Assembly: GCA_964654285.1 (NCBI GenBank)
Contig: CAZZJC010000025.1
Span: 1,046 to 65,045 of the forward strand
DNA: 64,000 bases
Source of the DNA: an uncultured Candidatus Kuenenia sp.
Lineage (GTDB): Bacteria; Planctomycetota; UBA11346
Direction: 5' to 3'
In this document: positions 4,121 through 22,601 of the stretch, one piece after another
Layout: every line of letters starts with the position of its first letter
Numbering within the stretch: the first letter of the stretch is position 1
Notes under the pieces: model-generated
What the model saw: only the letters and a program-made list of their open reading frames with translations
Databases searched by the model: none
What the model was told of the DNA's origin: nothing
Made by a program: the position numbers and the translations under genes

Positions 4121-5164
4121 CTATTTCTTCTGGGGCTGGATCGGAACCGCCACCGGCTGGTCCATGCGCCGGATGGTGCCCTCGGCCACGCCCTGCTGGA
4201 AGGTGCCCATCACCGCCTGGCGTTCGATGGACGACAATTCCCTGGTCAGGCGGCGGTTCACCGTGAGTTTGACCAGCGATTCCTTGTCGACCAGGGTGCC
4301 GGCCGCAGGCACCTGGCCGAGGATGACCCCGTCGGCGATCTTGGGATTGCCGGTGGTGGCGATCGCATAGCGCAGCTGGGACTTCTGCATCTCTGCGTCG
4401 GCTTCCCGCAACGGCCTGCCGGTCAGCGTCGGCACCTTGATCTTGATGTCAGGCGTGCCGACGGGCGGCAGGCCAGGACGCTGGGCGATGATCAGGTTCA
4501 CCAGCTCGCCGGCCTCGACCGTCGCTTCGGCGGCCGGATCCTGGCTGAGGACGGTCTCGTCGTTGTGCGTGGTGTCGGGCTTGTAGTTGATGCTGCCCAC
4601 GCGCAGGGCCGAGGAGCGGATGCGGGTTTCTGCCTCGCTCAACGCCAGGCCCTCCAGCTTCGGCATGGCGAGCTTGGGCGGCGGGGGTGGCGGCGGCGGC
4701 TCCTGCATGGCGAGGATGATCGCGACGGCTCCGCCGACCACGATGATCGCGCCGATCAGGCTGAAGATGATCCAGGCCGGGAAGGGCGGCTTCACCTGCG
4801 CCTCGGGCACGGTCACGCTCAAGGATGGGCTGCGCGCGACATCGCCGTCGGGATTCGCGGTGTTGAGGGCGAGGACGTTGAAGCGGTAGGTGCCCGGAGC
4901 CGGCCGCTGCGCGGCGGAGACGCGCAGCCGGTAGGTGACGCTGTCATTGGTCCGGATGTCGAGTTCGGGCGCCTGGCTGGGCAGCTCGCGGCCGTCCTCG
5001 CTGAGCAGCCGCGCGGTCAGGCCCGGCGTCCCGCCTTCGATCAGGGTGCGCGCGGTCTGGGTGAAGCCGCTGCCGTTGCCGACGCGGATCTCGAACTCCG
5101 CCGTGAGGTCGGGGCCGAGGATGCGGTTGTCCGAGGAGGCGCTGACGGTGAAGGAGGTGGGCAT
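4121..5164 (-). CDS. CIS-associated bitopic membrane protein: Ig-like (CARDB-like) N-domain, TM helix, 2 PASTA repeats
   Basis: 347 aa with no signal peptide. N-domain ends ...PGTYRFNVLALN.... TM helix is WIIFSLIGAIIVVGGAVAIILA, followed by a poly-Pro run. Two PASTA-type repeats (MPKLEGLALSEAETRI...VLSQDPAA and VPTLTGRPLREADAEM...ILGQVPAAGT). Confidence 0.8.
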   Translation of the reverse strand: MPTSFTVSASSDNRILGPDLTAEFEIRVGNGSGFTQTARTLIEGGTPGLTARLLSEDGRELPSQAPELDIRTNDSVTYRLRVSAAQRPAPGTYRFNVLALNTANPDGDVARSPSLSVTVPEAQVKPPFPAWIIFSLIGAIIVVGGAVAIILAMQEPPPPPPPPKLAMPKLEGLALSEAETRIRSSALRVGSINYKPDTTHNDETVLSQDPAAEATVEAGELVNLIIAQRPGLPPVGTPDIKIKVPTLTGRPLREADAEMQKSQLRYAIATTGNPKIADGVILGQVPAAGTLVDKESLVKLTVNRRLTRELSSIERQAVMGTFQQGVAEGTIRRMDQPVAVPIQPQKK

Positions 5165-5227
5165 GGGATTTTGCTCGGGTGGCCGGTGGCAGGTGGGCTG
5201 GCAGGCAGGCGCGATCGCGGTCGGAAC

Positions 5228-7360
5228 CTAGCGGGAGAGGAACCGGATCAACTGGTCCTGGTTCACCCGCTCGATCGGCAGCGCCTGCTCCTGGGGTTGG
5301 CCGTTCCTGAGCGTGTACCGGATCAGCAGTTGCGGCATGTAGATGGGGGGACTCCGACGCAAATCCAGGAATCTTCCATTGCGCAGCTCGAACACGCCGG
5401 TTTCGGTGAGATCGCGTTCCGTCGCGGGCCTGTGATCAGGGGCGGGCCTGCCGGGATGGCCCCGCATGCCGCCGCGTTCGATGAGGGCGAGGATCCGCAG
5501 GTCGTTGTTGAGCGCGAAGCCCTTCTGCTTCCAGATGGCGAAATCAGCCTGGGACAGGGTGAGCGATTCCTTGGTCGAAACCACGTAGCCGTAGAAATGC
5601 GGCAGCCAGCTGCCCACGGGCATCACCTTGATGGTCGTCAGGCCCTCCAGCCGGCCGAGGTCGACGCGGGCGCTGGTGGTGAGTCGATCCGCCGTCCACG
5701 AACCGGTGACGGTGGCGAAGGCGTTGGTGGACTTCAGCGCCCCCTTCACCAGCACCTTGCAGGGCCGGCTCTCGGCGGCGGTGAACAGGGCATAGAGGTG
5801 GTAGGTTCCGGTCTCAACCTTCACGCTGAACTCGTGCGCGGTGCCGCCGAGGACGGAGATCGGCGCCTCGGTGACAGGAATGGGTGGTTGCGCAGTCGCG
5901 ATGAGCTCGCAGGCCTTGATCGGGATGTCCGGTGCCTGGCCGGCGAGGGTCAGCACGATCTTGTCGCTCGCCGCGACGCGGGCCTTCGCGGCCGGCTTCT
6001 GCTCGATCACCGTGCCCGGCGGACTGCCGCTCGCCTGCTCCTGGATGGTGATGTATTCCGGCCCCCAGCCGAGTTCATCCAGCCTGGCCAGGGCCTGCTG
6101 ACGGCTCTTTCCGGTCAGGTCGGGCATGGCGGTCGCCAGGGTGAGGTTGACCAGTCTCGCATCCGGGATCGGAGCGCCCGGCAGGGGGGTCTGGCTGACC
6201 ACCAGATCCGGATCGGCGTCGGACAGTTCGTAGCTGACCTTGCCCGGTTTCAGCTCGGCGGCGGCCAGGCTCGGGGCCACGGCGGCCAGGGGCGCCCCGA
6301 TCACGTTGGGCACTTTGCGCACCACGGTCAGGTTGATCCGTTGGCCGGTGGCTACCACCTGGCGGGGAGCCGGATCCTGATCCGCCACGGTGTTGTTGTC
6401 GCCCAGCGGCGCGTATTTGTAGTCGATGGACCCCTTGGCCAGACCGGCGTCCTGGATCTGCTCCAGCGCCGCGTCGAGGGGCAGGTTGATCAGGCGCGGC
6501 ATGAGGGAATTCGCGGCCACCTTGAGGGCGATGAGCTTGTCGGTCGGCACCCGCGCCCCGGCGGGCGGATCCTGGCTCAGGACCAGGTTCTTGTTCCGGC
6601 TCGGGTCGGGCACCTCGGTGCTCGAGATGTGATCCTCGCGCACGCCGAGCTGCACGAGCAGCCGTTGCGCGTCGCGCAGGGGCAATGCGACCACGCTGGG
6701 CATGGGGCGGGCGAGGATCAGATCGATGGTGCGGGTCGGGGGCAGCGCCGCCCCGGCGGCGGGATTCTGGCCCACCACGGCGTCGGAATCCGCATCCGAC
6801 AACTGGTAGGTGACCGTCCCGAGCCGCAGATGCGCGGCCGCCAGCCTGCTGCTGGCGGTGCTGAAGGGGGATCCGACCAGGCTCGGCACCGTGCGCGACT
6901 GGACGGCGAGGATGAGCGCGGTGGCTCCGCCGAGGACGATCAGGGCCGCCACGGCGGCGAAGATCATCCATGGCTTGAGCGGCATGGGCTGGCTGAGCTG
7001 GCCCACCACCACGCTCAGGGACTGGCTGTGCGCCACGTCGGCATTGGGATTCACCGTGTTCACGGCGAGGACGCTGAACCGGTAGGTGCCGGCTGGCGGC
7101 CGCTGGCGGGCGGCGAGGCGCAGGCGGTAGACGACCTCCTCGTTGGCCCGGATGTCGACCTCGGGGGTCTGGCTCGCCAATGGCGAACCATCGGCGGCGA
7201 GCAGCTGGGCATCGAGTCCCGGGGTGGCGCTCTCGATCAGCGTGCGGGCGGTCTGGGTGAAGCCGCTGGTGTTGGCGATCCGCACCTGGAACTCGGCCGA
7301 CAGATCCGGCCCGAGGGCGATGCTGACGGCGGGGGTGGTGACGGTGAAGGACGTGGGCAT
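5228..7360 (-). CDS. CIS-associated bitopic membrane protein: Ig-like N-domain, TM helix, 5 PASTA repeats, beta-rich CBM-like C-domain
   Basis: 710 aa. N-domain is 77/119 identical (hand alignment) to that of 4121-5164. Five repeats of the type VPxLxG...A...L...L..G.V......V..Q.P.aG. C-terminal ~240 aa contains GTYHLYALFTAAESRPCKVLVKG. Confidence 0.85.
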   Translation of the reverse strand: MPTSFTVTTPAVSIALGPDLSAEFQVRIANTSGFTQTARTLIESATPGLDAQLLAADGSPLASQTPEVDIRANEEVVYRLRLAARQRPPAGTYRFSVLAVNTVNPNADVAHSQSLSVVVGQLSQPMPLKPWMIFAAVAALIVLGGATALILAVQSRTVPSLVGSPFSTASSRLAAAHLRLGTVTYQLSDADSDAVVGQNPAAGAALPPTRTIDLILARPMPSVVALPLRDAQRLLVQLGVREDHISSTEVPDPSRNKNLVLSQDPPAGARVPTDKLIALKVAANSLMPRLINLPLDAALEQIQDAGLAKGSIDYKYAPLGDNNTVADQDPAPRQVVATGQRINLTVVRKVPNVIGAPLAAVAPSLAAAELKPGKVSYELSDADPDLVVSQTPLPGAPIPDARLVNLTLATAMPDLTGKSRQQALARLDELGWGPEYITIQEQASGSPPGTVIEQKPAAKARVAASDKIVLTLAGQAPDIPIKACELIATAQPPIPVTEAPISVLGGTAHEFSVKVETGTYHLYALFTAAESRPCKVLVKGALKSTNAFATVTGSWTADRLTTSARVDLGRLEGLTTIKVMPVGSWLPHFYGYVVSTKESLTLSQADFAIWKQKGFALNNDLRILALIERGGMRGHPGRPAPDHRPATERDLTETGVFELRNGRFLDLRRSPPIYMPQLLIRYTLRNGQPQEQALPIERVNQDQLIRFLSR

Positions 7361-7370
7361 GGGTGCGCTG

Positions 7371-8117
7371 CTATTGGTTGAATTGCCGGGCCGGCGTCGG
7401 CTTGCGCGTGGGCGTCGTCTCGACCGGCTTCACCGGCGTCTTCTCGACCGCCGCCGGCTTGGCGGGGACGGCCTCGGGCCGCGACGCGGTTTCGTGCGGC
7501 GTCGCGGGCGTGCTGGCGGGTTCTGCCTTGGGCGGCTCTCTGCGCGCGGGTTCCGCCGCCGCCGGTTCGGATTTCGCCGGTTCCGGTCTGGCCGGCGCGG
7601 GTTTTTCCTCGCCTGGCGTCCTGGGCGATTCCTTGCTTTCAGGCTTGGCTGGTCCGGCCGGTTTGGCCGGTTCGGCCGGCCGGGTCAGGGCGAACCACAG
7701 CAGGGTGCTGGCGGTGGCGAGCATCAGCACCCCGAGCAGCACCAGCCACCACGGGAAGCCCGGCGGCGGGGGCGCGGCCTGATGCATGGCCGCGACGGTC
7801 ACGGTGATCTCGGGGCCGTTGATCGCCGGTCCGCCTCCGGTCGGGACGAGATCGAGGCGGAAGCGGTAGCCGCCGGCCGCGACCGTCGGCGGCACCGCGA
7901 CCGCGACCAGGCAGATCCCGGTGGTGCCGGCATCGAGCTGCACCGTCGGCGTGGCGGCGGCGAGGGCGCCGGCCAGTTCGCGGTCGAGGGCGACCGGGGT
8001 CGGCGTCACCTGGGCCGGCTCGCCGCCGCGATTGGTCAGGCTGAACACGACCCGCCCGCGCCGGGTGGCCGGATCGAGGTTCAGGCTGACGCTGGCGGTC
8101 TCGGCGAGGACGTTCAT
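7371..8117 (-). CDS. CIS-associated bitopic membrane protein: Ig-like N-domain, TM helix, Pro/Ala/Lys/Glu-rich tail
   Basis: 248 aa. N-domain has the same pattern (...SLTNRGGEPAQV...AAGGYRFRLDLV...). TM helix is WWLVLLGVLMLATASTLLWFAL. About 105 aa of PAKPE-type low complexity follows. 4-nt overlap with the upstream gene. Confidence 0.7.
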   Translation of the reverse strand: MNVLAETASVSLNLDPATRRGRVVFSLTNRGGEPAQVTPTPVALDRELAGALAAATPTVQLDAGTTGICLVAVAVPPTVAAGGYRFRLDLVPTGGGPAINGPEITVTVAAMHQAAPPPPGFPWWLVLLGVLMLATASTLLWFALTRPAEPAKPAGPAKPESKESPRTPGEEKPAPARPEPAKSEPAAAEPARREPPKAEPASTPATPHETASRPEAVPAKPAAVEKTPVKPVETTPTRKPTPARQFNQ

Positions 8118-8632
8118 GCGGCGGCGACCAGCTCGTGGGTGACGTGCGCCGGCTTGGCGAGTTCGATGACGGCCTCCATCAGGGGGCGCTGGCCGGCGCA
8201 GGCGGCGGGATGGCGGATGCAGAGGTGGTGCAGCCGGGGACGGCCATCGGCGCCGAGGTTCTCGGCGATGGCGAAGCCGTCGTGGCCGGTGGCGAGGCGG
8301 AGGAAGCGCAGCATGCCCGAGCGGGTTCCGCGCCAGCGCGCGAGGTCGTGGGCCTGGGCGACCAGTTCGCGCAGCCGGGCGGGATCGGTCACCGCGGCGC
8401 GGTTGCCCAGCGCGGGCAGGAAGCGCGCCAGGTCGACCCAGCGGGCGAGGAATGGGACGAACGATTCCGGGGCGCGACGGGGGTCGAGATATGCATCGAT
8501 GTCGGCCAGGATCCGCTCATCCTTGCGCATCAGTCCGGCCATGACCTCGACCAGGCCGTCGCTGATCGTACCCGGGGTCGCGGTCTGGCTGACCACGGCC
8601 GGCAGCAGCTGGAGGATCTGATCGCGGGTCAT
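8114..8632 (-). CDS. Phage tail protein I-like baseplate wedge protein (Afp12-type N-domain)
   Basis: 172 aa from ATG 8632 (ATGA overlap with the stop of 8629-9222). LLPAVV...DPRRAPESFVPFLARWVDL...ARWRGTRSGMLRFLRLATG matches the tail-protein-I signature. The 269-aa upstream extension is rejected. Confidence 0.8.
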   Translation of the reverse strand: MTRDQILQLLPAVVSQTATPGTISDGLVEVMAGLMRKDERILADIDAYLDPRRAPESFVPFLARWVDLARFLPALGNRAAVTDPARLRELVAQAHDLARWRGTRSGMLRFLRLATGHDGFAIAENLGADGRPRLHHLCIRHPAACAGQRPLMEAVIELAKPAHVTHELVAAA

Positions 8633-9222
8633 GGGGTCGGCCCTTGCGGCTCGTGCGGGGTTGCGGATGGGGCGCCGGAATAGGCTGAGAATTCCGAGTA
8701 TTTCTGCGATCGCCACCAGGCGAAGGCGGCCAGGCCGGCGACCGCGACCGCGGTGGCGAGCAGGACCAGTCCGGGCAGCCAGTCGACGGTGATCATCACC
8801 ACGATGGCCGCGATCGCGAGCAGGGCGGCGCTGTACGACGCCCAGACCCAGGCCGGTCGCACCGGCCAGATCGAACCGGATGCGGCGACCACCAGGGTGA
8901 GGGCCAGGGGCGGGCTGACCCATTCGTTCGGATTGTCGACCCCGACCGCGCGGATCTCACAGGTGTAGGTGCCGGGGGCGAGCTGCTGCGGCAGGTCGAT
9001 GCCCAGCGGCAGGCTGCGGCTGGCGCCGGGATCGAGGATGAACTCTTCACCCGCCAGGCTGAGCCCGCCCGGCGCCAGCGGCGGCAGCGGCCGGAGGTCG
9101 AGGCGCGTGCGCAGCGCGTCGCGGCCATCGTTGGCCACCTGCACCTGCATCTGGCCGCGGCGCAGCCCGGTGAGGGTGATGGAGGTCGAACCTGCGCTCA
9201 GGCGATAGGCGGCAAAAGGCAT
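8629..9222 (-). CDS. CIS-associated membrane protein: Ig-like N-domain plus two-helix hairpin anchor
   Basis: 197 aa. N-domain QVQVANDGRDAL...APGTYTCEIRAVGVDNP has the same pattern as the three downstream paralogues. Two hydrophobic helices. Encoded between the baseplate J and tail protein I genes. Confidence 0.7.
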   Translation of the reverse strand: MPFAAYRLSAGSTSITLTGLRRGQMQVQVANDGRDALRTRLDLRPLPPLAPGGLSLAGEEFILDPGASRSLPLGIDLPQQLAPGTYTCEIRAVGVDNPNEWVSPPLALTLVVAASGSIWPVRPAWVWASYSAALLAIAAIVVMITVDWLPGLVLLATAVAVAGLAAFAWWRSQKYSEFSAYSGAPSATPHEPQGPTP

Positions 9223-9291: not shown

Positions 9292-12066
9292 TCAGGATTC
9301 CTCGGTGACATCGATGCGGTGGTATCCGGCGCAGAACAGCCAGGTCGGCGGCAGCGGCAGCTTGTCGAGGTAGGTGCGCTGCGAGCAGGCCGAGAAGCGC
9401 AGGCCCTCGCTGGCGCGGAACACCCCTTGCGCGCCTCCGGCCAGCAGGTGCGTCCCGCTGTCGTCGGCGGCGATCGTCTCGACCGGCAGGTGCGTGCCCT
9501 GTTCCGACGTGCTGCGCAGCGGCAGGCCGCAGTCCTGGGCCGAGACGACCCAGGCCGCGTCGGGCTGGCTGAAATCGAAGGCCAGCACGCCCGACCGGTA
9601 CGAGGCGGCATAGACCCGGTTGCCGGCAAAGGTCAGCGCCTTGCAGGTGCCGCCGTTCCAGCCCTTGCTCGCCCAGCGCCAGGCCGGCGGCGGCGGGTTG
9701 CTGCGATCCGCCGGCACGGCGGCGAGCGGCAGTTCGCCGACCAGGGTGCCCTTGCCGGGATCGTTGCCGATCGATGCCAGGCCCGCCCACAGGTGGTAGC
9801 GGTTGCCGGTGGCCTGGACTTCCAGCACGCGGATGTCGAGGTCTTTCAGGCCGATGTGGGTGAAGGAGCCGGTGCGCCCGCCCTGGTAGGAGAGGTAGAC
9901 CCCGCCCAGGGCCTCGGCCGCCACCGCGACCGCGAGCACCCCGCCGTGGCTGGCGGTGGCGACGGCGTAGAAGCGCTGATCCGGCTTCTGGGCGTCGACC
10001 AGGACGAGTTCCGGGATCGCATCGGCGACCGGGGTGAGCGAGATCAGCCCGTGGTCGGAGGCGAGGAAGAGCGTCGGCACACCATCGCGCACGGCCCAGG
10101 CGCCGTCTTCCAGGATGAACGAGGTGCGGCAGGGAGCGCTCCAGGTCTGACCGTAATCCTTGGAGAAATACACGCGGCCGGCGCGGCTTGGGGCGGGCGG
10201 CGCAGGCGGCTTCGCAGCGGCATCCGGCTTCGCTGGCGTGTCCGGCTTCGTCGGGGTCAGGGCCGGAGCCGGCTTGGCGGGATCCGCTTTCGCCGCGTCG
10301 GCCTTGGCGGACTCCAGCCGGGCCGATTCCGCCTTCGCCGGATCGGCCGGCGCGACCGGGGCGGGCACGGTGACGCTGATCGCGGCGACCAGACCGGGCA
10401 CCTGGGGATGCGGGAAGATGCGCAGGATGCGTTCGCCGGGGAAGGTCGTCGCGAGTTCCCAGCCGGCGCCGTCGTTGACCGAGACGAACAGGCGTTCGCC
10501 GCTGCCAGCGTACCAGGTGTGCGGCTTGAAGGAATCCGCCGCCAGGGCGCCGACGTCGGCCGCCGGGGCCTGGTCGACCTCCAGCGCGATGCCCTCGACG
10601 TAGGCGACCCCGGGCACGGCCAGGATGGCGTCGTAGACCTGCGAGGCGCGCAGCGGCGCCCCGAAGTCGCGTCCGGGGGCGCCGTCGCGCGCGAGCGGAT
10701 CGAGGCGGCGGTCGATCGCCGCGCCGACCTTGGCGCGGATCGCATCCGCATCGGTGTGGCGGCGGGTGACCACCCGGGCCGCGACCGCGACCTGCTTGCA
10801 GGGCACCCAGGCGATGCGGATGGCCGAGCCCAGCGGCCGGCATTCGTCGAGCGCCCGCGTCACCGCGTCGAGGGCGGCGTCGGTCTGCAGCGCGGCGATC
10901 TCGGCCCGGGTCGGGCGGCGCGGCGGCCCGGCCGGCGGCCGCGGCACCAGCAGCACGTCGACCGTGCCCGGGTCGCAGCCGGGATAGACCTGCGAACGGG
11001 TGTAGGCCTTGGCCCGGCTGACCAGGTCGCGGCAGCGGTTGACCGCGATCAGCTCGTAGTCGAGCGCGGTCACCGCGCGGCGCAGGGAATAGAACTCGAA
11101 CGGGCCGCGTTCGCTGGCGTTTTCCAGGGATTCCGCCTCGCGTCCGCCGGTCGCCGGCTGCGGGTTGGCGACCGCCAGGCCGCCGACCCCGGGCAGGGGC
11201 CGGACCAGGCGGGTCAGGGATCCGCCGGGCAGGTTGCCGCTCGGGCCGCCGCCGGCGTGGTACCAGAGGCGGATCCGGCGGCCTTCGCCCGGATAGGCCC
11301 CGAGCGCGCTCGCGCGTTCGGCGAGGACGCCGGGATCGGCGGGATCGCGCAGCCGGGCCGAGCCGGGGAAGTACACCCGGCCGAGCTGCCGGTCGACGAT
11401 GCAGGCGCAGGTGTCGGCGCCGAGGTCGGTGAAGTCGTCGACCTCGCGCCAGAGGCGGTAGGTGACGCCGTCCTCCTCGCGCAGGGCCATGCCCTCGCGC
11501 AGCTCCTCGCGCGCGATCTCGACCCCGATCGCGAACGGATCGTCGGCGCCCAGGCGGGCGACGATCGGGGCGCGCTTGGCCTCGACGACCTGGCCCGGCT
11601 TGCCGGTGCCCGTGCCGGCGGCCTCGCTGATCGCGGTGGCGTGGATGGCGCGGATCGTGACCCGGTCGGATCCGGCCGGGATGGTCGCGGCGGTCAGGGT
11701 GGTGAACACCGCCGGCTGGCCGCCGCTCTCGGCGCGGTTGGCGGCGACCTCGGTCCCGGCCGGGATGACCACCGCGGCCGGGGCCGGGGCGGCGAGGCTG
11801 AACACGAGGTCGACCCGCGCCGCCGAGGGCGGATGCAGGCGCAGGCCCAGGAGGCGCAGGAACTCGATGTAGGCCTTCTCCGGCAGCCGGTTGAGCCGGT
11901 AGAGCATGGTCTCGGTCAGGTGCGCGAAGAGCTCGAGCAGCACCACCCCGGGATCCGAGGCCGAGTTCGCGCTCCAGGCGGTGCCGCGCTCGGCGAGGAT
12001 CCGGCGCGCTTCGGCCAGGAGCTGGTCGAAGGTGCGGTCATCGAGATTCGGGACGGGCAGGGACAT
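9292..12066 (-). CDS. Baseplate J-like protein (Afp11-type) fused to an Asp-box beta-propeller-like C-terminal region
   Basis: 924 aa. N-terminus (NLDDRTFDQLLAEARRIL...DPGVVLLELFAHLTETMLYRLNRLPEKAYIEFLRLLG) is typical of phage-tail-region baseplate assembly proteins. C-terminal ~400 aa has Asp-box-like motifs (SVNDGAGW, SKDYGQTW) and a PA-rich insert. Confidence 0.9.
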   Translation of the reverse strand: MSLPVPNLDDRTFDQLLAEARRILAERGTAWSANSASDPGVVLLELFAHLTETMLYRLNRLPEKAYIEFLRLLGLRLHPPSAARVDLVFSLAAPAPAAVVIPAGTEVAANRAESGGQPAVFTTLTAATIPAGSDRVTIRAIHATAISEAAGTGTGKPGQVVEAKRAPIVARLGADDPFAIGVEIAREELREGMALREEDGVTYRLWREVDDFTDLGADTCACIVDRQLGRVYFPGSARLRDPADPGVLAERASALGAYPGEGRRIRLWYHAGGGPSGNLPGGSLTRLVRPLPGVGGLAVANPQPATGGREAESLENASERGPFEFYSLRRAVTALDYELIAVNRCRDLVSRAKAYTRSQVYPGCDPGTVDVLLVPRPPAGPPRRPTRAEIAALQTDAALDAVTRALDECRPLGSAIRIAWVPCKQVAVAARVVTRRHTDADAIRAKVGAAIDRRLDPLARDGAPGRDFGAPLRASQVYDAILAVPGVAYVEGIALEVDQAPAADVGALAADSFKPHTWYAGSGERLFVSVNDGAGWELATTFPGERILRIFPHPQVPGLVAAISVTVPAPVAPADPAKAESARLESAKADAAKADPAKPAPALTPTKPDTPAKPDAAAKPPAPPAPSRAGRVYFSKDYGQTWSAPCRTSFILEDGAWAVRDGVPTLFLASDHGLISLTPVADAIPELVLVDAQKPDQRFYAVATASHGGVLAVAVAAEALGGVYLSYQGGRTGSFTHIGLKDLDIRVLEVQATGNRYHLWAGLASIGNDPGKGTLVGELPLAAVPADRSNPPPPAWRWASKGWNGGTCKALTFAGNRVYAASYRSGVLAFDFSQPDAAWVVSAQDCGLPLRSTSEQGTHLPVETIAADDSGTHLLAGGAQGVFRASEGLRFSACSQRTYLDKLPLPPTWLFCAGYHRIDVTEES

Positions 12067-12114: not shown

Positions 12115-12543
12115 CTAGCGACGGGCTTCGGGCAGGTCGCCGCCGAGATCGACGGCGAAGCGCAGGGCGTGGGTGGAGGCGTTCGCGCGCACCCGGTAGT
12201 CGAGCTGGATCGCGAGCGCCTCGGGGTGGGCGGGATCGGCGCCGGCATCGAGGGCGATGATCTCGACCCGGGGCTCCCAGCGTTCGACCGCCTGGCGGAT
12301 GAAGTGCATCGCCAGCCCGGCGGTGGTGTCGTCGTTGGGCAGGAATGCGAGCCGGCGCAGGTCGCAGCCGTAGTCGGGCCGCATCACCCGTTCGCCCGGC
12401 GTGGTCGACAGCAGCATGAGCAGCGCCTGGCGGATCTCGGCCTCGCCGTCGATCAGCGCCACCGCGCCGAGCGCGCTGGTCTGCGGCCCGCCGGCATGCG
12501 CCGCAGCATCGAGACCCGGAAAGGCGAAGCGCCAGGCGGTCAT
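12115..12543 (-). CDS. GPW/gp25-family baseplate protein
   Basis: 142 aa from ATG 12543. IRQALLMLLSTTPGERVMRPDYGCDL is the gp25 signature. The upstream extension of the 195-aa ORF runs through the repeat element and is rejected. Confidence 0.9.
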   Translation of the reverse strand: MTAWRFAFPGLDAAAHAGGPQTSALGAVALIDGEAEIRQALLMLLSTTPGERVMRPDYGCDLRRLAFLPNDDTTAGLAMHFIRQAVERWEPRVEIIALDAGADPAHPEALAIQLDYRVRANASTHALRFAVDLGGDLPEARR

Positions 12544-12630
12544 GGCAGATAACTCGACACACGGCTCGTTTGCGATCCTAGACCAAACCATGGATCCGTC
12601 TTCAGAACAACGTCTCCCAAGGATGAAATG

Positions 12631-12732
12631 AAAAATCGCAAGTGTGCCCCAGATGCAAGGCGGGAGGAAGGAGTGTGGCAGCGCCACATGACTGACGACC
12701 AACGCCGCAGATGGGGTGCAATTGCGATTTTT
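12631..12732 (-). repeat. 102-nt palindromic A5...T5 element, copy A (MITE-like, possibly a bidirectional terminator-like hairpin)
   Basis: Reverse complement differs from 30796-30897 at 4 of 102 positions (hand alignment). Its ~22-nt termini are inverted repeats of each other. Strand label only records orientation relative to copy B. Confidence 0.85.
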
Positions 12733-13099: not shown

Positions 13100-14563
13100 T
13101 CAGCCCTTCTCGAAGTCGATGCGCGCGGCGCGCAAGGTGAGGGTCGATCCGGGGGCGTCGAGCAGCAGGTTGCCGGCGGCGTGCAGGCGGACGCCGTCGC
13201 CGGCCAGGGAGAGACGGTGCCCGTCGCGGTGTTCGAGCAGCACCTGGCCGCCTTCGTCGTCGAACCACAGGCGGTGGCCGCCGGGGGCGATCCAGCCGGC
13301 CCGGCGCACGCGGCTGCCGGCCACGGCGGTCTCGGGCTGGCCCGCTTCGCTCCAGAGTCCGCCCAGCACCACGGCGCGGGCGGGATCGCCGCCCAGCGGC
13401 AGGACGAGGACGTGGTCGCCGACCTCGGGCGTCGCCACCAGGCCGCGGCCGGGGCCGGCGACCGGGCAGAGCACCTGCAGCCAGTCGCTCTCGGCCTCAC
13501 CCAGGGCGTCGTAGGTCACGCGCACGCGGGCGAGCCCGTCCGGGTCGGCGACATCGCTCACCCGGCCGATGAAGGCGGTGGCCGGCCGGCCGGGCGCCGG
13601 CGCATTCGGCAGGGCGGTGTCGAAGCGGACGCGGTAGCCGCCGGCGTCGATGGTGTGCTCGGCGTGCATCACCGTCCAGGTGCCGCCGAGATCGGCGGGC
13701 ACCCCGCGCAGGTCGAGCCGTGCCGCCGGGGCGATGCGGGTGTCGCCCACCGCGGTGCCCCAGAGGGTCGCCGCCGCCGCCGCGCGGCGGTCGAGCGCGG
13801 CCTGGGCCAGGGCCTCGGCCTGATCCGAGTCCTCGACCACCAGTCCGGCCAGGGCGAGCGCGGTCGTGGCCGCCGGTTCGCCGGCGATGGCGCGCGGCAG
13901 GCGCGGGCTGGCGGCGCTGCCGGCACGGGTCACGGCGCGGAACGGATCCCAGCCGGTGGCCGAGGCGCTGGTCGCGCCGGCGGCGGGATGGGTCTCGGCG
14001 TCGAGTTCGATCAGCCCTTCGCCCAGGGTGAGGGGGACGGGGTCGCCGTGGCCGCCGGGGCCGACCAGGCGCAGGGTGTCGCCGTCGCCGACGAGCCACA
14101 GGCCGACACGCGCGGCGACCTCGGTCAGCACCGCGAAATCGCTCTCGCCGCGCTGGACGATGCGGGCCCAGCGCGGACCCGGTTCGGCGGTGGCGGCGCT
14201 GAGGCCGTGCGCGCCGGCGAGGCGCTCGGCGAGGTCGCCGGCGGTCATCGCGGCATAGGCGGTGGTCTGGCAACGCCCGCGCAGGCGCTGCAGGGCGTCG
14301 TAGGCGCGCAGGCGGCACTGCCCGGCCTGGCCGGGGCGCAGGCGCCGGTGCACGGCGGCCAGGGTGCCGTTGAAGAGCGGCTTCGCCTGCCCAGCCACGC
14401 CCACCCGCACCTGCGCCTCGGCGCCGGCCTCGACCGCATCGGTGAAGACCAGTTCGCACTGCGCGGGCAGGCCCAGGCACTGCACGACGCGGACCGATTC
14501 CAGCCGCGCGGTGGCCGGGACGCCGTCGAGCTCGACCGTGACCAGCGGGGCCGGCAGGGTCAT
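13100..14563 (-). CDS. gpD/VgrG-like central spike (late control D plus gp5 OB-fold)
   Basis: 487 aa from ATG 14563 (ATGA overlap). FIGRVSDVADPDGLARVRVTYDALGEAESDWLQVLCPVAGPGRGLVATPEVGDHVLV is the classic VgrG/gp5 OB-fold stretch. No C-terminal effector extension. Confidence 0.9.
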   Translation of the reverse strand: MTLPAPLVTVELDGVPATARLESVRVVQCLGLPAQCELVFTDAVEAGAEAQVRVGVAGQAKPLFNGTLAAVHRRLRPGQAGQCRLRAYDALQRLRGRCQTTAYAAMTAGDLAERLAGAHGLSAATAEPGPRWARIVQRGESDFAVLTEVAARVGLWLVGDGDTLRLVGPGGHGDPVPLTLGEGLIELDAETHPAAGATSASATGWDPFRAVTRAGSAASPRLPRAIAGEPAATTALALAGLVVEDSDQAEALAQAALDRRAAAAATLWGTAVGDTRIAPAARLDLRGVPADLGGTWTVMHAEHTIDAGGYRVRFDTALPNAPAPGRPATAFIGRVSDVADPDGLARVRVTYDALGEAESDWLQVLCPVAGPGRGLVATPEVGDHVLVLPLGGDPARAVVLGGLWSEAGQPETAVAGSRVRRAGWIAPGGHRLWFDDEGGQVLLEHRDGHRLSLAGDGVRLHAAGNLLLDAPGSTLTLRAARIDFEKG

Positions 14564-15369
14564 GCGGTCTCCAGCAGGGCGCGGGCGACCGCCTCGGGCG
14601 CGGGCAGGCGCAGCACGGTGCCGCCGGGCAGGGCCTGCGGATCGGCGAGGTCGTTGGCCGCCGCGATGAGCCGCCAGTAGGCGGGGTCGCCGTAGAGCCG
14701 CGCCGCGAGCAGGTCGAGCCGCTCGCTGTCGCCCAGGCGCACGGTGGCGGCGGGTTCCTGGCTGAGCGCCGCGCCGACCGCGACCGCGGCGGCGGGCTCG
14801 GGGGCGGGCGCCACCGGGGCGGCGGTGTTCGGCACCAGGACGCGGAGGAAGCGCAGGCGCAGCCAGGATCGGCGCGGCGCGCCATCGGGAGCGAAACGCT
14901 CCAGCCGCTGCGCCACCGCGGCGACCACCCCGGGCAGGTTCCAGCGTTTGCCCCAGATCACCCGCACCAGCGGCAGTTCGACCCGGCCGGCCTCGTTGCG
15001 TGCGTGCTCGGCGAGGGCGAAGAGGGGGGCGGTGAGCTGGCGCACGTCGACGATCGGGCGGTCGTCGACGCGGGTCGGATCGGGGTCGGACATGCGCCGC
15101 CGTACCGTGTCCTGGTTCCAGCGTTCGTCCGCGACGGTCGCATGCGCGCCGGCGAGGTCGACATCGAAGAGCAGATCGAGCTGCCATTCCGTGCGTCCGC
15201 CTCCGGTCGCCGCGAGCGGCGCGTCGGCGGCGTCGCCCGGTTCAGCGGCCGAGATGCCCGGCTCGCGTGTCGCGAGGCCCGCCCAGCGGCGGATCTCCAG
15301 CGACTCCGGGTTGAGCAGGCACGGGATGCGGCTGCCGGTCGATTCGACCAGGATGATCACGCGTTCCAT
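14560..15369 (-). CDS. Tube-initiator-like protein with C-terminal LysM (gpX/Afp7-type)
   Basis: 269 aa. N-terminus (ILVESTGSRIPCLLNPESLEIRR) is typical of CIS tube-fold proteins. C-terminal LysM (VRLGDSERLDLLAARLYGDPAYWRLIAAANDLADPQALPGGTVLRLP). Confidence 0.85.
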   Translation of the reverse strand: MERVIILVESTGSRIPCLLNPESLEIRRWAGLATREPGISAAEPGDAADAPLAATGGGRTEWQLDLLFDVDLAGAHATVADERWNQDTVRRRMSDPDPTRVDDRPIVDVRQLTAPLFALAEHARNEAGRVELPLVRVIWGKRWNLPGVVAAVAQRLERFAPDGAPRRSWLRLRFLRVLVPNTAAPVAPAPEPAAAVAVGAALSQEPAATVRLGDSERLDLLAARLYGDPAYWRLIAAANDLADPQALPGGTVLRLPAPEAVARALLETA

Positions 15370-16572: not shown

Positions 16573-17028
16573 TCAGGCGCTGGCGCTGCCTTCGCTCACC
16601 TCGCGTTCGAGGTGGTCGAAGGCGATGCTCACGCTTTCGATCGCGACGGTGTTGGCGAGGCCATCCATCGGCTGGGCGCGCCAGCGGCTCGGCCAGGCCT
16701 CGTACAGGTTCCAGCGCACCTCGCGGCCGCTGCGCTGCGGATCGAGCAGGGCGATGGTCAGGTTCTGCTTGTAGCTGTCGGCGGACAGGGCCGCCTCGAA
16801 CCAGCGCCAGAGGTCGAGCGAGGTCGAGACGCCGTACCACAGTTCGAGTTCGGCATAGTCGACCCGGCCGCGCAGCTTGCGCACATGTTCGGAGCCGCCT
16901 TCGCGGTAGGCGATCGGCTCGATCCGGGCTTCGAGCCCGGTGATCGAGGTGAAATAGCCCTTGGCCTCGTTGCCGATGCGCAGGGCGAAGTTGTAGGAAC
17001 GGAACGGTTCGTTGCGGGGATCGGGCAT
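16573..17028 (-). CDS. Contractile-tail tube protein (T4 gp19 / Afp1-type)
   Basis: 151 aa. FRSYNFALRIGNEAKGYFTSITGLEARIEPIAYREGG is the conserved tube signature. Confidence 0.9.
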   Translation of the reverse strand: MPDPRNEPFRSYNFALRIGNEAKGYFTSITGLEARIEPIAYREGGSEHVRKLRGRVDYAELELWYGVSTSLDLWRWFEAALSADSYKQNLTIALLDPQRSGREVRWNLYEAWPSRWRAQPMDGLANTVAIESVSIAFDHLEREVSEGSASA

Positions 17029-17047: not shown

Positions 17048-18307
17048 TTACTGGTGCTGCGCCTGGCCGGCGCTCTGGCTGATGCGGAAGATCACGAACT
17101 CGGCCGGGCGGATCACCGACAGGCCGACGAGGGTCACGACCTGGCCGGCCTGGATGACCTCCTCGGTGTTGGTGTCGGCATCGCATTTGACGAAGAACGC
17201 CTGTTCCGGCGTATCGCCGCGCAGCTGCCCCTGGGACCAGAGCAGGCGCAGGAAGCCGCTGATGTCGCGCCGGATCGCGTTCCACAGCGGTTCGTGGTTG
17301 GCCTCGAAGACGATCCAGCGGGTGTTCTCGCGGATCGACTTCTCGACCATGCTGACGAAGCGGCGCACCGGCACGTAGCGGTATTCGCTCGCCTCGTCGT
17401 CCAACGTGCGCGCGCCCCAGACCAGGATGCCCTGCTTGCTGAACGAGCGGATGATGTTCACCCCGCGCGGGTTCAGGCTGCCCTGGTCCTGGTCGTTGAG
17501 CTTGTGCACGACGCCGACCGCGCCGCGCAGGGTCTCATTCGCCGGGGCCTTGTGCACGCCGCGCACCGCGTCGGTGCGGGCGTAGACGCCGGCGAGGTGG
17601 CCGGAGGGGAACGCGGTGATGACGGTCGCGGGCGCGGCCTGTCCCGGCGCCGGACGGTGGAATTCCTTGAGCGGATCGTCGACCAGGATGGCCGGATAGT
17701 AGAACGCGCCGTAGCCGCCCTTGGAATTGCGCGGCCGCAGCCCCGTCTTGGCGGGAGCGGTCTCATCCTGGTCCTTCTTCTTGCGACCGCCGCCTTCGGC
17801 CACCGCCTCGCCGACTTCGCGCAGGGCGCCGAGATCGACAGGTTCCTTGGGCGGATCGAGGATGGCGACGCGGTCGCCGAGATTCTCGCAATGGGTGAGC
17901 AGCGCCTCGTAGTCGGCCGGGGCGATGCGGCCCGGCGCGGCGACGATGGCGACCTCGTCCTCGCGCGCGATGAGGTCGAGACCTTGGGCCAGGGTGCCCT
18001 GCTCGCCGAGGTTCACCACGAAGCAGCGGCCGCCGAGGTTGTCGAAGAAGCCGCGCACCGCGAGGGCGAGGTCGGTGGGATCGTTCTCACCCGCGGCTTC
18101 GCCCACGAATTCGCGGACGAACTGCATCCACGAGGTGATCGCCACGGCCTGCAGGCGGACCTGGCCGGAGGCGGTGGTGGTGACGTGGGCGCGCTTGCTC
18201 GGCGCGAGGCCGATGAAGGCGGCGGTGCGGGTGCCGACCGCCTGGATCGGGTGCGTGCCGGAGGAGACCTCCTCCACGTACACGCCAGGGTAAAGGTATT
18301 CAGGCAT
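17048..18307 (-). CDS. Contractile-tail sheath protein
   Basis: 419 aa. N-terminus YLYPGVYVEEVSSGTHPIQAVGTRTAAFIG and C-terminal RRDISGFLRLLWSQGQLRG are typical sheath motifs. GGAGA about 7 nt upstream of the ATG. Confidence 0.92.
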   Translation of the reverse strand: MPEYLYPGVYVEEVSSGTHPIQAVGTRTAAFIGLAPSKRAHVTTTASGQVRLQAVAITSWMQFVREFVGEAAGENDPTDLALAVRGFFDNLGGRCFVVNLGEQGTLAQGLDLIAREDEVAIVAAPGRIAPADYEALLTHCENLGDRVAILDPPKEPVDLGALREVGEAVAEGGGRKKKDQDETAPAKTGLRPRNSKGGYGAFYYPAILVDDPLKEFHRPAPGQAAPATVITAFPSGHLAGVYARTDAVRGVHKAPANETLRGAVGVVHKLNDQDQGSLNPRGVNIIRSFSKQGILVWGARTLDDEASEYRYVPVRRFVSMVEKSIRENTRWIVFEANHEPLWNAIRRDISGFLRLLWSQGQLRGDTPEQAFFVKCDADTNTEEVIQAGQVVTLVGLSVIRPAEFVIFRISQSAGQAQHQ

Positions 18308-18364
18308 CGGGATCTCCGGGGTTGGGATGCGGGTTGGGGGTGAGGGGAATGGAGAGTGGAGCGT

Positions 18365-19084
18365 TCACGGATCCGGAACGGTCAGATCGAGCCGCGTCGG
18401 CAGCGGATCCGGCAGGTCGAGCGGGACGAGGCGCCCGCGCACGTCGGCGGTCAGGCGGGTCGGCGCGGGAACGCCCGCGAACGACAGGGTGAAGCCGCCG
18501 TCGTGGCCGGTGCGCACCGGCTCGCCCGCCCCGGAGACCGGAACACCCACCAGCGGATGCCCGGCGGCGGTGCGCAGCCGGCCGTGGATCTGCCGGCGCG
18601 TGGCCTGGTGCAGGACGAGCGGTTCGAGGACGATGCCGGGCAGCGGATCCGGCCGGGCGCGCAGGACGAGCAGGCGCAGGCCGAGCGCAGGCAGCGGCGG
18701 CAGCCCGTGCGCCTGCCACCAGGCGGGTGGCGGGGTCTCGGGATCGGGTTCGCTGCTCTCGGGCAGGACGGGTTTGCCGGCCTGGAGCGCGAAGGCGAGT
18801 TCGCCCAGCCGGTCGTGGGCGGCGGGGTCGGTGCCGCGCGCAGCCAGGACGAAGTGGGCCTGGATGGCGAGGGGCGGCCGGGCGCCCGGACCGCCCAGGC
18901 GCGGTGGCGCGGTCGAGAGGCCGCGCAGCAGGCAGAGCAATCCGGCGCTGCCGGATTCGGCGCCGGTCGCCACCGCGCAGCCGGGAACGACGCCGCCCAT
19001 CCAGGCCACGATCTGCCGGGTGGCCTCGCCCAGCGTGCTGGGCGGTCCAGGTGGACCCGGCGGATTGACGGCAGCCTTGGGCAT
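18365..19084 (-). CDS. DUF4255 (Pvc16/Afp16-type) cap/terminator-like protein with CarboxypepD_reg-like C-domain
   Basis: 239 aa from ATG 19084 (an alternative GTG lies at 19150). PLAIQAHFVLAARGTDPAAHDRLGELAFALQAGKPVL fits the DUF4255 core. C-terminus is GRLRTAAGHPLVGVPVSG...GGFTLSF. Confidence 0.72.
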   Translation of the reverse strand: MPKAAVNPPGPPGPPSTLGEATRQIVAWMGGVVPGCAVATGAESGSAGLLCLLRGLSTAPPRLGGPGARPPLAIQAHFVLAARGTDPAAHDRLGELAFALQAGKPVLPESSEPDPETPPPAWWQAHGLPPLPALGLRLLVLRARPDPLPGIVLEPLVLHQATRRQIHGRLRTAAGHPLVGVPVSGAGEPVRTGHDGGFTLSFAGVPAPTRLTADVRGRLVPLDLPDPLPTRLDLTVPDP

Positions 19085-19105
19085 CGGGCGCTCGATTCGC
19101 TGGCG

Positions 19106-19121
19106 TGGCAATATCGTTGCA
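19106..19121 (+). promoter_or_regulatory. Sigma-54-type -24/-12 promoter-like motif
   Basis: TGGCAA-N5-TTGCA with consensus spacing (TGGCAC-N5-TTGCW). Lies in the divergent intergenic region, about 215 nt upstream of ATG 19339. Single-motif call that could be chance. Confidence 0.3.
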
Positions 19122-19338
19122 GGTGATTCTGAGCGACGACCCAGGGGCACCAGAGACGATCGCGGGGGAACATGGAAGCCGAGCTTTGCGTTTCAAGTCC
19201 GGCTTCCCAAACGTCCGACCTTGTCGGCAAATGGTTGCACTTTCTCCCCCGCCCCCTCATGGTGCCGCACTCTGTAGGTGGCGTTTCAGACCCGCGACCG
19301 TTCTTGCCCCCATTCATCCTCGTCGTGCGAGCCGCTGC

Positions 19339-22300: not shown

Positions 22301-22581
22301 TCGCGACCTGGAACCTGTCCTCGGATGGTCGGCCGCTGAGCGATCCCGACAGCTACTTCCAGGGCCATGCGTTCTGGCACATCGGCGGCGCGTTCACCGC
22401 CTTCGCGGTGTGGCTCAACCTGCGCAGCGAGACCACGGCCATGAACCCGCCCGCGATCAGCGTCGGCGGGGTCTTCCGCGACCTGCTCATGGGTTTCCTC
22501 GGCACGCTCGCCCGCCTGCCGCAGCTCATCTTCTGGGGCCTGATCCCGTTGACGCTCTTCCTGATCTTCCACCTCATCTGA
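19339..22581 (+). CDS. Giant polytopic membrane (lipo)protein: beta-rich N-domain, HExxH region, C-terminal alkaline-ceramidase/CREST-like 7TM domain
   Basis: 1080 aa from ATG 19339. Signal/lipobox-like VILLGLSALIGGC. HEEQHILQN (HExxHxxQ). C-terminal motifs KQPSNTWSDLAY, GSMLFHASLTAWGGYCDNLSMY and GHAFWHIGGAF match ceramidase-family conserved positions. Confidence 0.75.
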   Translation: MNPRLPWYFWVILSVILLGLSALIGGCTEGRAVTVSASRTGGVTTYTTVAGVVAPAAVPAPAAASASVNHIRAGMTVVISGFTDATLNGTFTVTGPPAGVAAPALGQFTVAQSGPNTAPAATGSVLVQGSVGGRIGEAMILGLFGAWLSAGFVWLLLRWGNYRPWTGAVIGFAFFLSPLWIVLELGWWIAGRIAGRDWRFHATPLALVLLALTVGWYAGTQDGTWRIRTWNVLWQMPIDHTWGLSGTTNAALVKLVNGPDEHVKPEYAAPMSVAGRTDYHQYVNGFAIAPTAVFTQGMTMSNQAGISLGGTITGDGNPNPLSTHEEQHILQNRIFGPLFTSTYLGWMGVTLLPSVLAGGGAGNLAGGIMAWTYANNPFEVWGYTTGGSPTGLVGTPGTAALLWASPLTGLATWTAGPVVFFTLLLLFGLLTMIVAILSAWWPGRARWWAVFGEGGGCGLLRYLLLGGNLAANTGLTIALWTASPAMGVVGLIGTVLTLLAWFPVIAGSRIGHNLIGCANLLAPTAQLATVLGLVALLLGLIGVPIGWLCRLRSDPADPNCREPAATPNWDGSSGPSLPTCVGGLALDRPTPMSAFFAFDRLRGRAGPLRLVVVGTWLSRLHPVGVSFGLLTFLNPDRLLPDDSMPEADDRFLAGLCLNNAAYGFWQYARFFDMGQPGFPDPRRDADQTPVLTRSFWDLLAESAVPVGTRSTTALNQEPERPRLPQWGDAPGADRFEHAPLVAGVLFSAFWLILIAAFATWGWPGVPDSCVATNTCYSEKHPLPPGTVVPAPWTGTGWAADGIKQPSNTWSDLAYVIFGLVILWQAGRDRRRAGSGGEPPANPMLEPSFFAISYGFITIFLGFGSMLFHASLTAWGGYCDNLSMYLWTSWLIAYDITRLNQAERRGWSLGLFALVFTPLILITCLIRALVPESSLIIFTVLVVTAIAIGVWMINLRQAGGVVREPHATVWKASFLSWIWAGLGVFVGAFATWNLSSDGRPLSDPDSYFQGHAFWHIGGAFTAFAVWLNLRSETTAMNPPAISVGGVFRDLLMGFLGTLARLPQLIFWGLIPLTLFLIFHLI

Positions 22582-22601
22582 CCGCAAGGAACCAGACCCC
22601 C

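Follow-up and report, generated by a model that had tools for sequence, protein, structure and literature searches.

Single-Ig membrane proteins encoded in the tail-fibre slot of Streptomyces-like contractile injection systems are candidate baseplate receptors

Introduction

Under stress, Streptomyces-like cytoplasmic contractile injection systems (CIS) kill or remodel the cell that makes them. At issue are how the particles find the membrane and which cue makes them fire. We analysed a 64,000 nucleotide (nt) stretch of DNA from an uncultured Candidatus Kuenenia sp. (contig CAZZJC010000025.1, positions 1,046 to 65,045; hereafter the window) that encodes a CIS of this kind. Beside the genes for baseplate J and tail protein I (hereafter J and I) are four genes for putative membrane proteins, which we call p4, p3, p2 and p1. 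All four start with the same immunoglobulin (Ig)-like domain, hereafter the N-domain (ND). Here, we compare these proteins with described CIS components and ask what they might do.

Two membrane proteins of described CIS are relevant. In Streptomyces, CisA (Sco4242) is a bitopic adaptor with its N-terminus inside and its C-terminus outside (N-in/C-out); it is needed for firing and is not a component of the purified particle (PMC12237407). The cytoplasmic part of CisA is predicted to contact the baseplate protein Cis11 (PMC12237407). CisA answers the question of membrane finding and firing only for Streptomyces and some other actinomycetes, and a study of Roseiflexus reported no close cisA homologues in that organism. 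In the thylakoid-anchored CIS (tCIS) of Anabaena, the gene for Cis13 (All3316) occupies the tail-fibre slot. Cis13 has a baseplate-binding N-terminus and a transmembrane (TM) helix at amino acids (aa) 122-154 (PMC8894136). Deletion of this helix frees the particles, and Cis13 is a constitutive anchor (PMC8894136).

A third described group is closer in layout. In Sco4256-58 of Streptomyces coelicolor, an Ig-like N-terminus is conserved, a single TM helix follows and the C-terminus varies; a 2023 study presented the three as CIS-associated effectors (PMC10066040). A second study in the same year noted that the first domain of Sco4256 resembles pilus chaperones and RbmA (PMC10020575). The BLAST homologues listed there belong to IId clusters not only of other actinomycetes but also of Cyanobacteria, Deinococcus deserti and Chloroflexi, among them arrays in Roseiflexus (PMC10020575).

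Four proteins of the window share an N-terminal Ig-like domain

The four open reading frames (ORFs) lie on the minus strand, and their translations bear out the positions given in an earlier, sequence-only reading of the window (hereafter the original prediction; Table 1). In each, an Ig-like domain of ~115 aa begins at Met1. The N-termini of p1 to p4 are not hydrophobic, and no signal peptide was recognised. In BLASTP comparisons, the N-domains of p1 and p2 are 62% identical over 129 aa (E 9e-56) and the remaining pairs are 23-33% identical (E 8e-4 to 5e-8). The original prediction had counted 77/119 identities between p1 and p2; the close likeness stands, and BLAST gives 80/129 in place of that figure.

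Three profiles were used: a family hidden Markov model (HMM) built excluding every window sequence (A4), a mixed ND profile (A6) and a profile of the window lineage (A2). In the 64-kb window, the A4 HMM matches these four ORFs and no other (p4, E 1e-16; p3, 4e-18; p2, 3e-17; p1, 3e-18). Aligned with hhalign, the window-lineage and family profiles match with a probability of 99.7% (E 1e-25), and each single window N-domain matches between 14 and 62 ND ORFs in other loci. By these comparisons, the four proteins are divergent members of the ND family.

An AlphaFold2 model of p1 aa 1-155 (pLDDT 85) shows a beta-sandwich of 10 strands, which starts at residue 5, and then a TM helix (130-154). Taken with the BLASTP and HMM matches, the model upholds the shared, beta-rich, Ig-like domain that had been proposed. 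Foldseek returned generic Ig-like sandwiches only, namely N-domains of GH123 enzymes, complement MG domains, the pilus chaperones FaeE and CupB2, and RbmA. The N-domain of the window proteins is assigned by no Pfam, NCBIfam or PHROG model; the Pfam model NPCBM_assoc matched 15 of 128 family members scanned, the stretch covered not being reported. Searched against all PDB chains, the ND profiles gave no CIS match at E<=10; the set held the tCIS entry 7b5h, of which the sheath chain was matched.

Beyond the N-domain the proteins diverge, and Pfam matches, composition and translation agree with the four C-terminal parts expected. In p4, two adjacent hydrophobic helices can be read off the sequence as a hairpin. 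The tail of p3 is 24% P, 19% A, 13% E and 10% K. Pfam PASTA matches five stretches of p2 (E 1e-52) and two of p1 (E 2e-17). The domain that follows the PASTA repeats of p2 (5231-5920) is wholly unlike that of a close orthologue, a 571 aa protein of a metagenomic relative (locus L001, 11885-13600), which suggests that the distal tip of p2 is exchanged as a cassette between relatives.

The genes are tightly packed. The stop codon of J at 9292 is followed by a 69-nt gap and then by p4. An ATGA overlap joins the p4 stop codon to the start codon of I, and a second ATGA joins the stop codon of I to the start codon of p3 (8117). As read from these overlaps, p4, I and p3 form a translationally coupled set. 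Gaps of 10 nt (p3 to p2) and 63 nt (p2 to p1) follow.

The N-domain defines a large family that adjoins CIS baseplate genes

We searched 1.84 billion cluster representatives with an ND-only HMMER profile. At E<=1e-3 there were 1207 matches, of which 121 reached E<=1e-10. Of the best 150 matches, about 125 are proteins of 114-910 aa in which ND runs from Met1 (consensus MPxxFAIT...) to near residue 113. In the same proteins the sequence ...KKPFPWWI is followed by one hydrophobic helix at ~125-145 and then by variable sequence. The other top-150 matches are giant secreted multi-Ig proteins that share the generic fold.

Among 128 members, PASTA is the commonest C-terminal domain (50/128). The others are Laminin_G_3, F5/8 type C, CBM96, B_lectin, Tectonin, PD40/NHL propellers, Big_3_5 and META. 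Some members end in TA-rich repeats or PT-rich linkers, and one has the head of a lactophage receptor-binding protein (RBP). No toxin or enzyme domain was found in the C-terminal parts of the 128 members. Word-indexed protein search is nearly blind to the family: p4 found itself and one orthologue, the p2 N-domain found nothing and a 22-sequence profile found five proteins only. Exhaustive HMMER search was needed to reveal the rest.

Linkage was assessed in 185,579 species genomes, scanned with two ND motifs only, GVDNPDE[DE] and K[PK]FPWWI (10-sequence subset). The 78 loci obtained were mapped with the window CIS proteins and the ND HMMs. In 61 of 78, J and/or I adjoin an ND gene; among the loci that have 3 kb or more upstream, the proportion is 61/71 (86%). 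Where gene order could be seen it was sheath..VgrG-gp25-J-I-ND, with one to six ND paralogues. The exceptions were L058 and L066, where ND genes precede the sheath gene, and L021, where an ND gene separates J from I. The loci belong to Chloroflexota, Myxococcota, Acidobacteriota, Planctomycetota, Gemmatimonadota, Cyanobacteria, Proteobacteria (Alpha-, Gamma- and Delta-), Verrucomicrobiota and Actinomycetota. A further locus, with the order J-I-hypothetical-ND/PASTA, came from a separate search of plasmids and belongs to a Deinococcus sp. Taken together, profile searches and gene neighbourhoods indicate a large, uncurated family that is specific to CIS loci, and the co-occurrence with baseplate genes that had been suggested as a check is borne out.

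ND genes occupy the slot in which canonical extracellular CIS and phages encode tail fibres. This position had been predicted for the window, and we found no fibre-like gene at the locus and no PHROG tail-fibre family at E<=0.01. The place of p4 between J and I, with its 4-nt overlap, had also been noted correctly. Its orthologue P0002, 81% identical, holds the same place in the metagenomic relative (L001/L002), where the order J-p4-I-p3-PASTA-PASTA-310 aa is exactly that of the window. The arrangement is not a general rule: in just one of 76 other distinct loci, L021, does an ND gene separate J from I. There, the inserted protein has the usual ND-TM layout and no hairpin, and its C-terminal stretch resembles PASTA when judged by eye. 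Hence, we rejected p4 as a conserved insert of the J-I wedge.

The N-domain is very probably cytoplasmic and the PASTA repeats outside

The helix between KK and PFPWW is strongly hydrophobic and 20-23 aa long, as is typical of a membrane span. Counting K and R on either side of the helix, the N-side is higher in 61 members and the C-side in 26 (p = 6e-4). PASTA repeats are extracellular in the PknB/Stk1 kinases. From residue 130, p1 and p2 align to the model of these kinases (NF033483, PknB_PASTA_kin) from model position 334, that is, from the TM helix onward. The E-values are 2e-17 and 4e-38, and the scores 63 and 132 bits against a cut-off of 450. The likeness is confined to the TM helix and the PASTA repeats that follow it; unlike the kinases, the window proteins have no Pkinase match, and an Ig-like ND stands in the place of the kinase.

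Two further arguments concern tandem-Ig relatives of the Streptomyces type and not ND itself. The first is a gene fusion on the Deinococcus aquaticus plasmid pDATS01 (L084; 9728-15501 together with the gene for tail protein I). The gene after J-I encodes a protein of 1596 aa with Pkinase (9-268), FHA (339-393), a Streptomyces-type Ig module (427-716, E 1e-31), a TM helix (701-724) and a further ~870 aa. The kinase side of this fusion is cytoplasmic and, hence, its Ig module should be also. The second argument is glycosylation. Sco4256 has been recovered from the membrane fraction of S. coelicolor with Hex3 on Ser317, in the Gly-rich peptide GGGGGGGGESKKPKPPVR, and mannosylation by Pmt is coupled to export. 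In the L083 homologue of Sco4256, the Gly-run is ~60 residues past the TM helix (222-240). Thus, Sco4256 is O-glycosylated beyond its TM helix in membranes of the producer, which implies insertion N-in/C-out in the producing cell.

Together, and as indirect evidence, the folded start at Met1 without signal peptide, charge bias, kinase alignment, fusion and glycosylation make it very probable that ND proteins are N-in/C-out, with ND in the cytoplasm and PASTA outside. The topology given in the original prediction agrees with this.

Baseplate J of ND loci has a C-terminal extension

The J protein of the window consists of a core (about aa 1-555), a PAKAD-rich linker and a C-terminal extension of ~300 aa (aa ~626-924, DNA ~9295-10191). 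Two Asp-box-like motifs, SVNDGAGW and SKDYGQTW, are present in the extension. All 59 J-I-ND loci in which the J core was detected have the extension (E<=7e-30). It is absent from three loci with a tandem-Ig Streptomyces-type protein, and Streptomyces Cis11 (652 aa) is also without it. We suggest that the extension is a marker of the clade and a candidate docking site for ND; the co-occurrence is confounded by shared ancestry.

In pDATS01, the tail protein I has an FHA domain fused to its N-terminus. Together with the kinase-FHA-Ig fusion encoded after it, this looks like a threonine-phosphorylation switch wired into a CIS baseplate. The arrangement resembles the PpkA-Fha1 threonine-phosphorylation switch of the T6SS (type VI secretion system).

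ND proteins are probably a sister branch of the Sco4256-58 kind

A tblastn search of plasmids with an actinobacterial ND did not reach Streptomyces, and proteins of the Streptomyces type were found via the sheath gene instead. Seven plasmid homologues from Streptomycetaceae, which bear the annotations 'hydrolase', 'hydrolytic protein' or 'RICIN domain-containing', were compared with ND. In them, a tandem Ig region of ~215 aa precedes the TM helix, which lies at ~220-245. When ND profiles were aligned with the first of the two Ig domains using hhalign, the register was the same. The probability was 93.7% (E 2e-7) with A6, 64% (E 6e-5) with A4 and 19% with A2. Using phmmer, there was no direct match above noise between a Streptomycetaceae protein and ND. 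A jackhmmer search from the Streptomyces protein reached all ND proteins only by drifting through giant secreted multi-Ig proteins, and was rejected as evidence of homology.

The two groups have much in common. Both form paralogue sets specific to CIS loci, and both have an Ig-like N-terminus without signal peptide, one TM helix and a variable, often carbohydrate-binding C-terminus. They also have the same structural neighbours, CupB2, FaeE and RbmA (our Foldseek search compared with Supplementary Data 5 of PMC10020575). Conversely, Ig domains are in tandem and the TM helix is at ~220-245 in the Streptomycetaceae proteins; in ND proteins there is one Ig domain, and the helix is at ~125-145. 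In the annotated locus L083, the Streptomyces-type gene is upstream of the sheath gene on the opposite strand; ND genes follow J-I. C-termini are ricin or lectin domains there and PASTA here, and the ND signature (NPDEDF, KKPFPWWI) is absent there. For Roseiflexus castenholzii, J is WP_012121309, the sheath is WP_012121318 and the listed Sco4256 homologues are WP_012121305 and WP_012121306. From the order of these accessions, we infer that the homologues are encoded three to four genes beyond J, which is the ND slot.

These comparisons point to ND proteins as a probable sister branch of the Sco4256-58 kind, rather than a demonstrated member. The original prediction had not recognised the arrangement from described CIS loci; a sister or parent family was, however, described in 2023, with homologues in Chloroflexi and Cyanobacteria, and was read as effectors and not as anchors. 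The Ig/TM/variable C-terminus kind is already partly known. What is new is the single-Ig head, the fibre-slot position, the prevalence of PASTA, the co-occurrence with the J extension and the arguments on topology.

CisA offers a looser parallel. The window proteins are, by the arguments above, probably also bitopic and N-in/C-out, and are encoded directly downstream of baseplate genes. However, the N-terminus of CisA is largely unstructured with a Zn-ribbon, whereas that of the window proteins is folded, Ig-like and has no Zn_ribbon match. The C-terminal domain of CisA (~150 aa) is SBP-like or F5/8-type-C-like; in the window, C-termini are PASTA, of low complexity or absent. The protein at the CisA position of a Streptomyces plasmid has matches to Zn_ribbon and to NADase_transloc/F5_F8_type_C. 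CisA is present in one copy per locus and ND in paralogue sets, and no sequence relation between CisA and ND was found. As to Cis13, p4 is similar in size and layout and is also encoded by a fibre-slot gene. Conversely, Cis13 belongs to another CIS lineage and is a trimeric, fibre-like protein with a triple alpha-helix. In the library of papers searched, no publication joins 'contractile injection system' with 'PASTA domain'.

ND proteins as candidate membrane receptors for the baseplate

We propose that ND proteins are membrane-embedded receptors or triggers for the baseplate, with conditional docking as for CisA. Binding to the baseplate and the trigger role are inferred, and we put the probability of this reading at roughly one half. 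The proteins would act as 'inside-out tail fibres'. ND would be a common adaptor on the cytoplasmic periphery of the baseplate, with tail protein I (Cis12) or the C-terminal extension of J as candidate sites, and the ectodomains would link baseplate contact to peptidoglycan or the envelope. PASTA is a candidate reporter of cell-wall state, as in PknB-type kinases. Particles would remain unattached until a cue from the envelope made the receptors accessible or clustered them; the baseplate would then engage the membrane and fire, in parallel with the proposal for Streptomyces CisA. Paralogues with one head and differing ectodomains may provide several inputs, or several spacings, for a single docking site.

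Several observations weigh against this proposal, and some of them favour the view that ND proteins are effectors. According to this alternative, ND is a loading or packaging domain, the proteins are CIS cargo, and the TM helix and C-terminus act on the membrane or cell wall after ejection. In the sco4256-58 triple mutant, ~85% of tube lumens are empty compared with ~3% in the wild type (PMC10066040). The mutant also phenocopies a CIS deletion, and Sco4256-58 are toxic in E. coli (PMC10066040). Sco4256, called a 'putative toxin', was detected in all three particle purifications, and one third of homologues have pore-forming-lectin-like domains (PMC10020575). Consistent with our profile alignments, ND and the N-terminal region of Sco4256 are probable remote homologues. 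The 9gtp cryo-EM model of the baseplate names Cis1b/7/8/9/11/12 as components but none of Sco4256-58, which also weighs against a receptor. On the other side, the commonest C-terminus is PASTA and the rest are lectins, carbohydrate-binding modules, propellers or of low complexity, with no toxin or enzyme domain among them; p3 and p4, half of the window paralogues, lack a functional ectodomain and any effector-like part. ND genes lie in the position of fibre genes and show translational coupling to the wedge genes. By its glycosylation, Sco4256 is inserted N-in/C-out in the producing cell; the Streptomyces relative is demonstrably in the producer membrane, and it also co-purifies with particles. 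Moreover, the mutant phenotype and toxicity reported for Sco4256-58 are matched by those of the adaptor CisA (PMC12237407). The fibre slot, wedge-gene coupling and binding or sensing C-termini are better explained by a receptor than by lumen cargo, and we consider the effector view, which the empty-lumen phenotype sustains as the main rival, rather unlikely for ND proteins.

Imaging also limits any docking. Extended CIS are seen unattached in intact cells of Roseiflexus, Calidithermus/Deinococcus and Streptomyces and, hence, docking must be transient if it occurs. This is harder still on the idea, made in the original prediction, of a graded set of permanent inner-membrane anchors that hold the baseplate in the manner of the T6SS membrane complex or tCIS Cis13. 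The same arguments from architecture and topology apply to it as to a receptor; Cis13 does anchor its CIS through a TM helix (PMC8894136), and SalCIS stands perpendicular to the inner membrane with a membrane protein encoded in its operon. Nevertheless, the CIS of the nearest imaged relatives, including two Deinococcota, float free, and the search of PDB chains, with tCIS entry 7b5h among them, returned no ND match to CIS proteins. Fixed anchors are thus improbable and the claim was overstated; at most, conditional docking is plausible. A further possibility is that ND proteins are true tail fibres, or receptor-binding proteins, of released particles, the helix being a trimerisation or membrane-insertion element. 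ND would then attach to the baseplate, and PASTA or lectin parts to the wall of the target cell. The fibre slot, the C-termini that bind carbohydrate or peptidoglycan and the single RBP head fit this, and a fibre role was proposed for Sco4242 on similar grounds (PMC10020575). However, a hydrophobic helix flanked by KK and PFPWW is what a membrane span looks like, extended particles of the lineage become unstable when cells lyse and were not seen outside cells, and the PHROG tail-fibre families gave no match. We consider this very improbable.

The remaining point against a baseplate receptor is that about 14% of informative loci are orphan ND copies amid housekeeping genes. Seven of these have full 10-kb flanks on both sides and no CIS gene (L008, L018, L033, L049, L053, L056 and L061). 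Neighbours in the five loci scanned include a fatty-acid desaturase, SHMT, Ffh, an Fe-S/FAD oxidoreductase and an NB-ARC/TPR regulator. At least two orphan genomes also have a CIS-linked ND copy (L048 with L056; L015 with L033). Given such orphans, and with TM plus PASTA being a general module for sensing the cell wall, ND proteins could be envelope or cell-wall sensors that are mere neighbours of CIS genes without a functional link. Conversely, the adjacency of ND genes to J or I holds in 61 of the 71 informative loci and spans at least nine phyla, their start and stop codons overlap with those of tail protein I, and the J extension accompanies them in all 59 loci. Chance neighbourhood is, in our view, the least probable explanation.

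A wider version of the receptor reading can be advanced tentatively, as somewhat less than an even bet. It holds that ND-TM proteins and Sco4256-58 alike are not cargo, and that both belong to a widespread class of transmembrane baseplate receptors by which cytoplasmic CIS would be linked with cell-wall state. Envelope damage would be sensed by PASTA or lectin ectodomains and the Ig head would recruit and trigger the baseplate, possibly via the J extension. In some Deinococcus, a Ser/Thr kinase-FHA pair, present as fusions with the receptor and with tail protein I, may be connected to the same module. The published Sco4256-58 'effectors' are thus open to reinterpretation, which can be checked in existing Streptomyces mutants.

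Were this wider reading correct, cytoplasmic CIS that lack CisA, in at least nine phyla, would have their missing trigger or anchor. ND proteins are a testable candidate for the CIS clade whose J has a C-terminal extension, and are defined by one putative docking-type domain. PASTA ectodomains suggest a link to the state of peptidoglycan. The family occurs in cultured and partly tractable bacteria, including Caulobacter, Ktedonobacter, Deinococcus, Methylomonas and Catellatospora. Because the N-domain of the window proteins is assigned by no Pfam, NCBIfam or PHROG model, an ND HMM would improve the annotation of many loci.

The remainder of the operon and its surroundings

Pfam matches and ORF translations identify the minus strand from 3.1 to 18.3 kb as a single CIS operon (Table 1). 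Its closest solved counterparts are parts of the cytoplasmic S. coelicolor machine and, judged from these matches, the window CIS belongs to the Streptomyces-like (IId) lineage.

Table 1. Features of the CIS operon, listed in order of transcription.
Feature	Position	Strand	Remarks
Sheath	17048-18307	-	best structure match S. coelicolor 8bky, E 4e-75
gp19-like tube	16573-17028	-	
ORF, 403 aa	15357-16568	-	between tube gene and CIS_tube/LysM-like gene
CIS_tube/Phage_tail_X protein	14560-15369	-	
VgrG-like spike	within mechanical ORF 13100-15187	-	5' part overlaps preceding gene; true start likely near 14581
gp25	12115-12702	-	
Baseplate J (Cis11-like), 924 aa	9292..12066	-	Pfam Baseplate_J E 5e-15; NCBIfam TIGR02243 E 4e-71; PDB 9gtp Cis11 E 2e-57
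p4, 197 aa	8629..9222	-	ND aa 1-116 (DNA 8875-9222); hydrophobic two-helix hairpin aa ~124-171 (DNA ~8710-8853); short tail
Tail protein I (Cis12-like), 172 aa	8114..8632	-	Pfam Tail_P2_I E 9e-7; PDB 9gtp chain E (Cis12) E 5e-5
p3, 248 aa	7371..8117	-	ND aa 1-113 (DNA 7779-8117); TM aa ~122-144; ~105-aa low-complexity tail; L001 orthologue 253 aa
p2, 710 aa	5228..7360	-	ND aa 1-124 (DNA 6989-7360); TM aa ~130-153; 5 PASTA aa ~158-480; beta-rich C-terminal domain aa ~481-710
p1, 347 aa	4121..5164	-	ND aa 1-124 (DNA 4793-5164); TM aa ~129-151; poly-Pro linker; 2 PASTA; short tail
Final operon gene, 310 aa	3176..4108	-	translation; N-terminal signal-anchor-like helix; no ND

The final gene, for a membrane protein unrelated to p1 to p4, begins 12 nt after p1. 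Its product contains an internally duplicated domain of ~115 aa with the pattern QPGFDLKQITVDGA..LD..KR.F. No PHROG or NCBIfam model and no above-threshold Pfam model matched it; a sub-threshold match to UB2H was seen (E 0.0034). The protein has conserved counterparts in L001/L002 (E 6e-163) and matches weakly in L021; it is possibly part of the same envelope module as the ND proteins.

At the other end of the operon, Streptomyces and Deinococcus CIS loci have a DUF4255 cap (Cis16) and an AAA+ ATPase (Cis15) by the sheath gene. In the window, neither was recognised beside the sheath gene (18300-24338, including 18365-19150 on the minus strand), and the ORFs tested in this region have no Pfam matches. 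The 403 aa ORF is kept in L001, where it has 431 aa, and was matched by no Pfam, PHROG or NCBIfam family. It is placed where a length-determining or tape-measure-like protein might be expected.

The GC content of the window is about 70%. Outside the CIS operon it codes for a TonB-dependent receptor, an ABC importer, PurA and the nuo operon, which points to a chromosomal region of a high-GC organism. The TonB-dependent receptor (Plug and barrel) adjoins an ABC ATPase and a periplasmic binding protein (27769-29757 and 30990-32749, plus strand). Because such a receptor is present, the host is probably a diderm, and not a Streptomyces-like monoderm; the PASTA ectodomains would then sit in the periplasm. 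Between the operon and this receptor, at 24335-26209 on the plus strand, a cyclic-nucleotide-binding domain is fused to a transporter of the Na/sulfate type (DASS/CitMHS).

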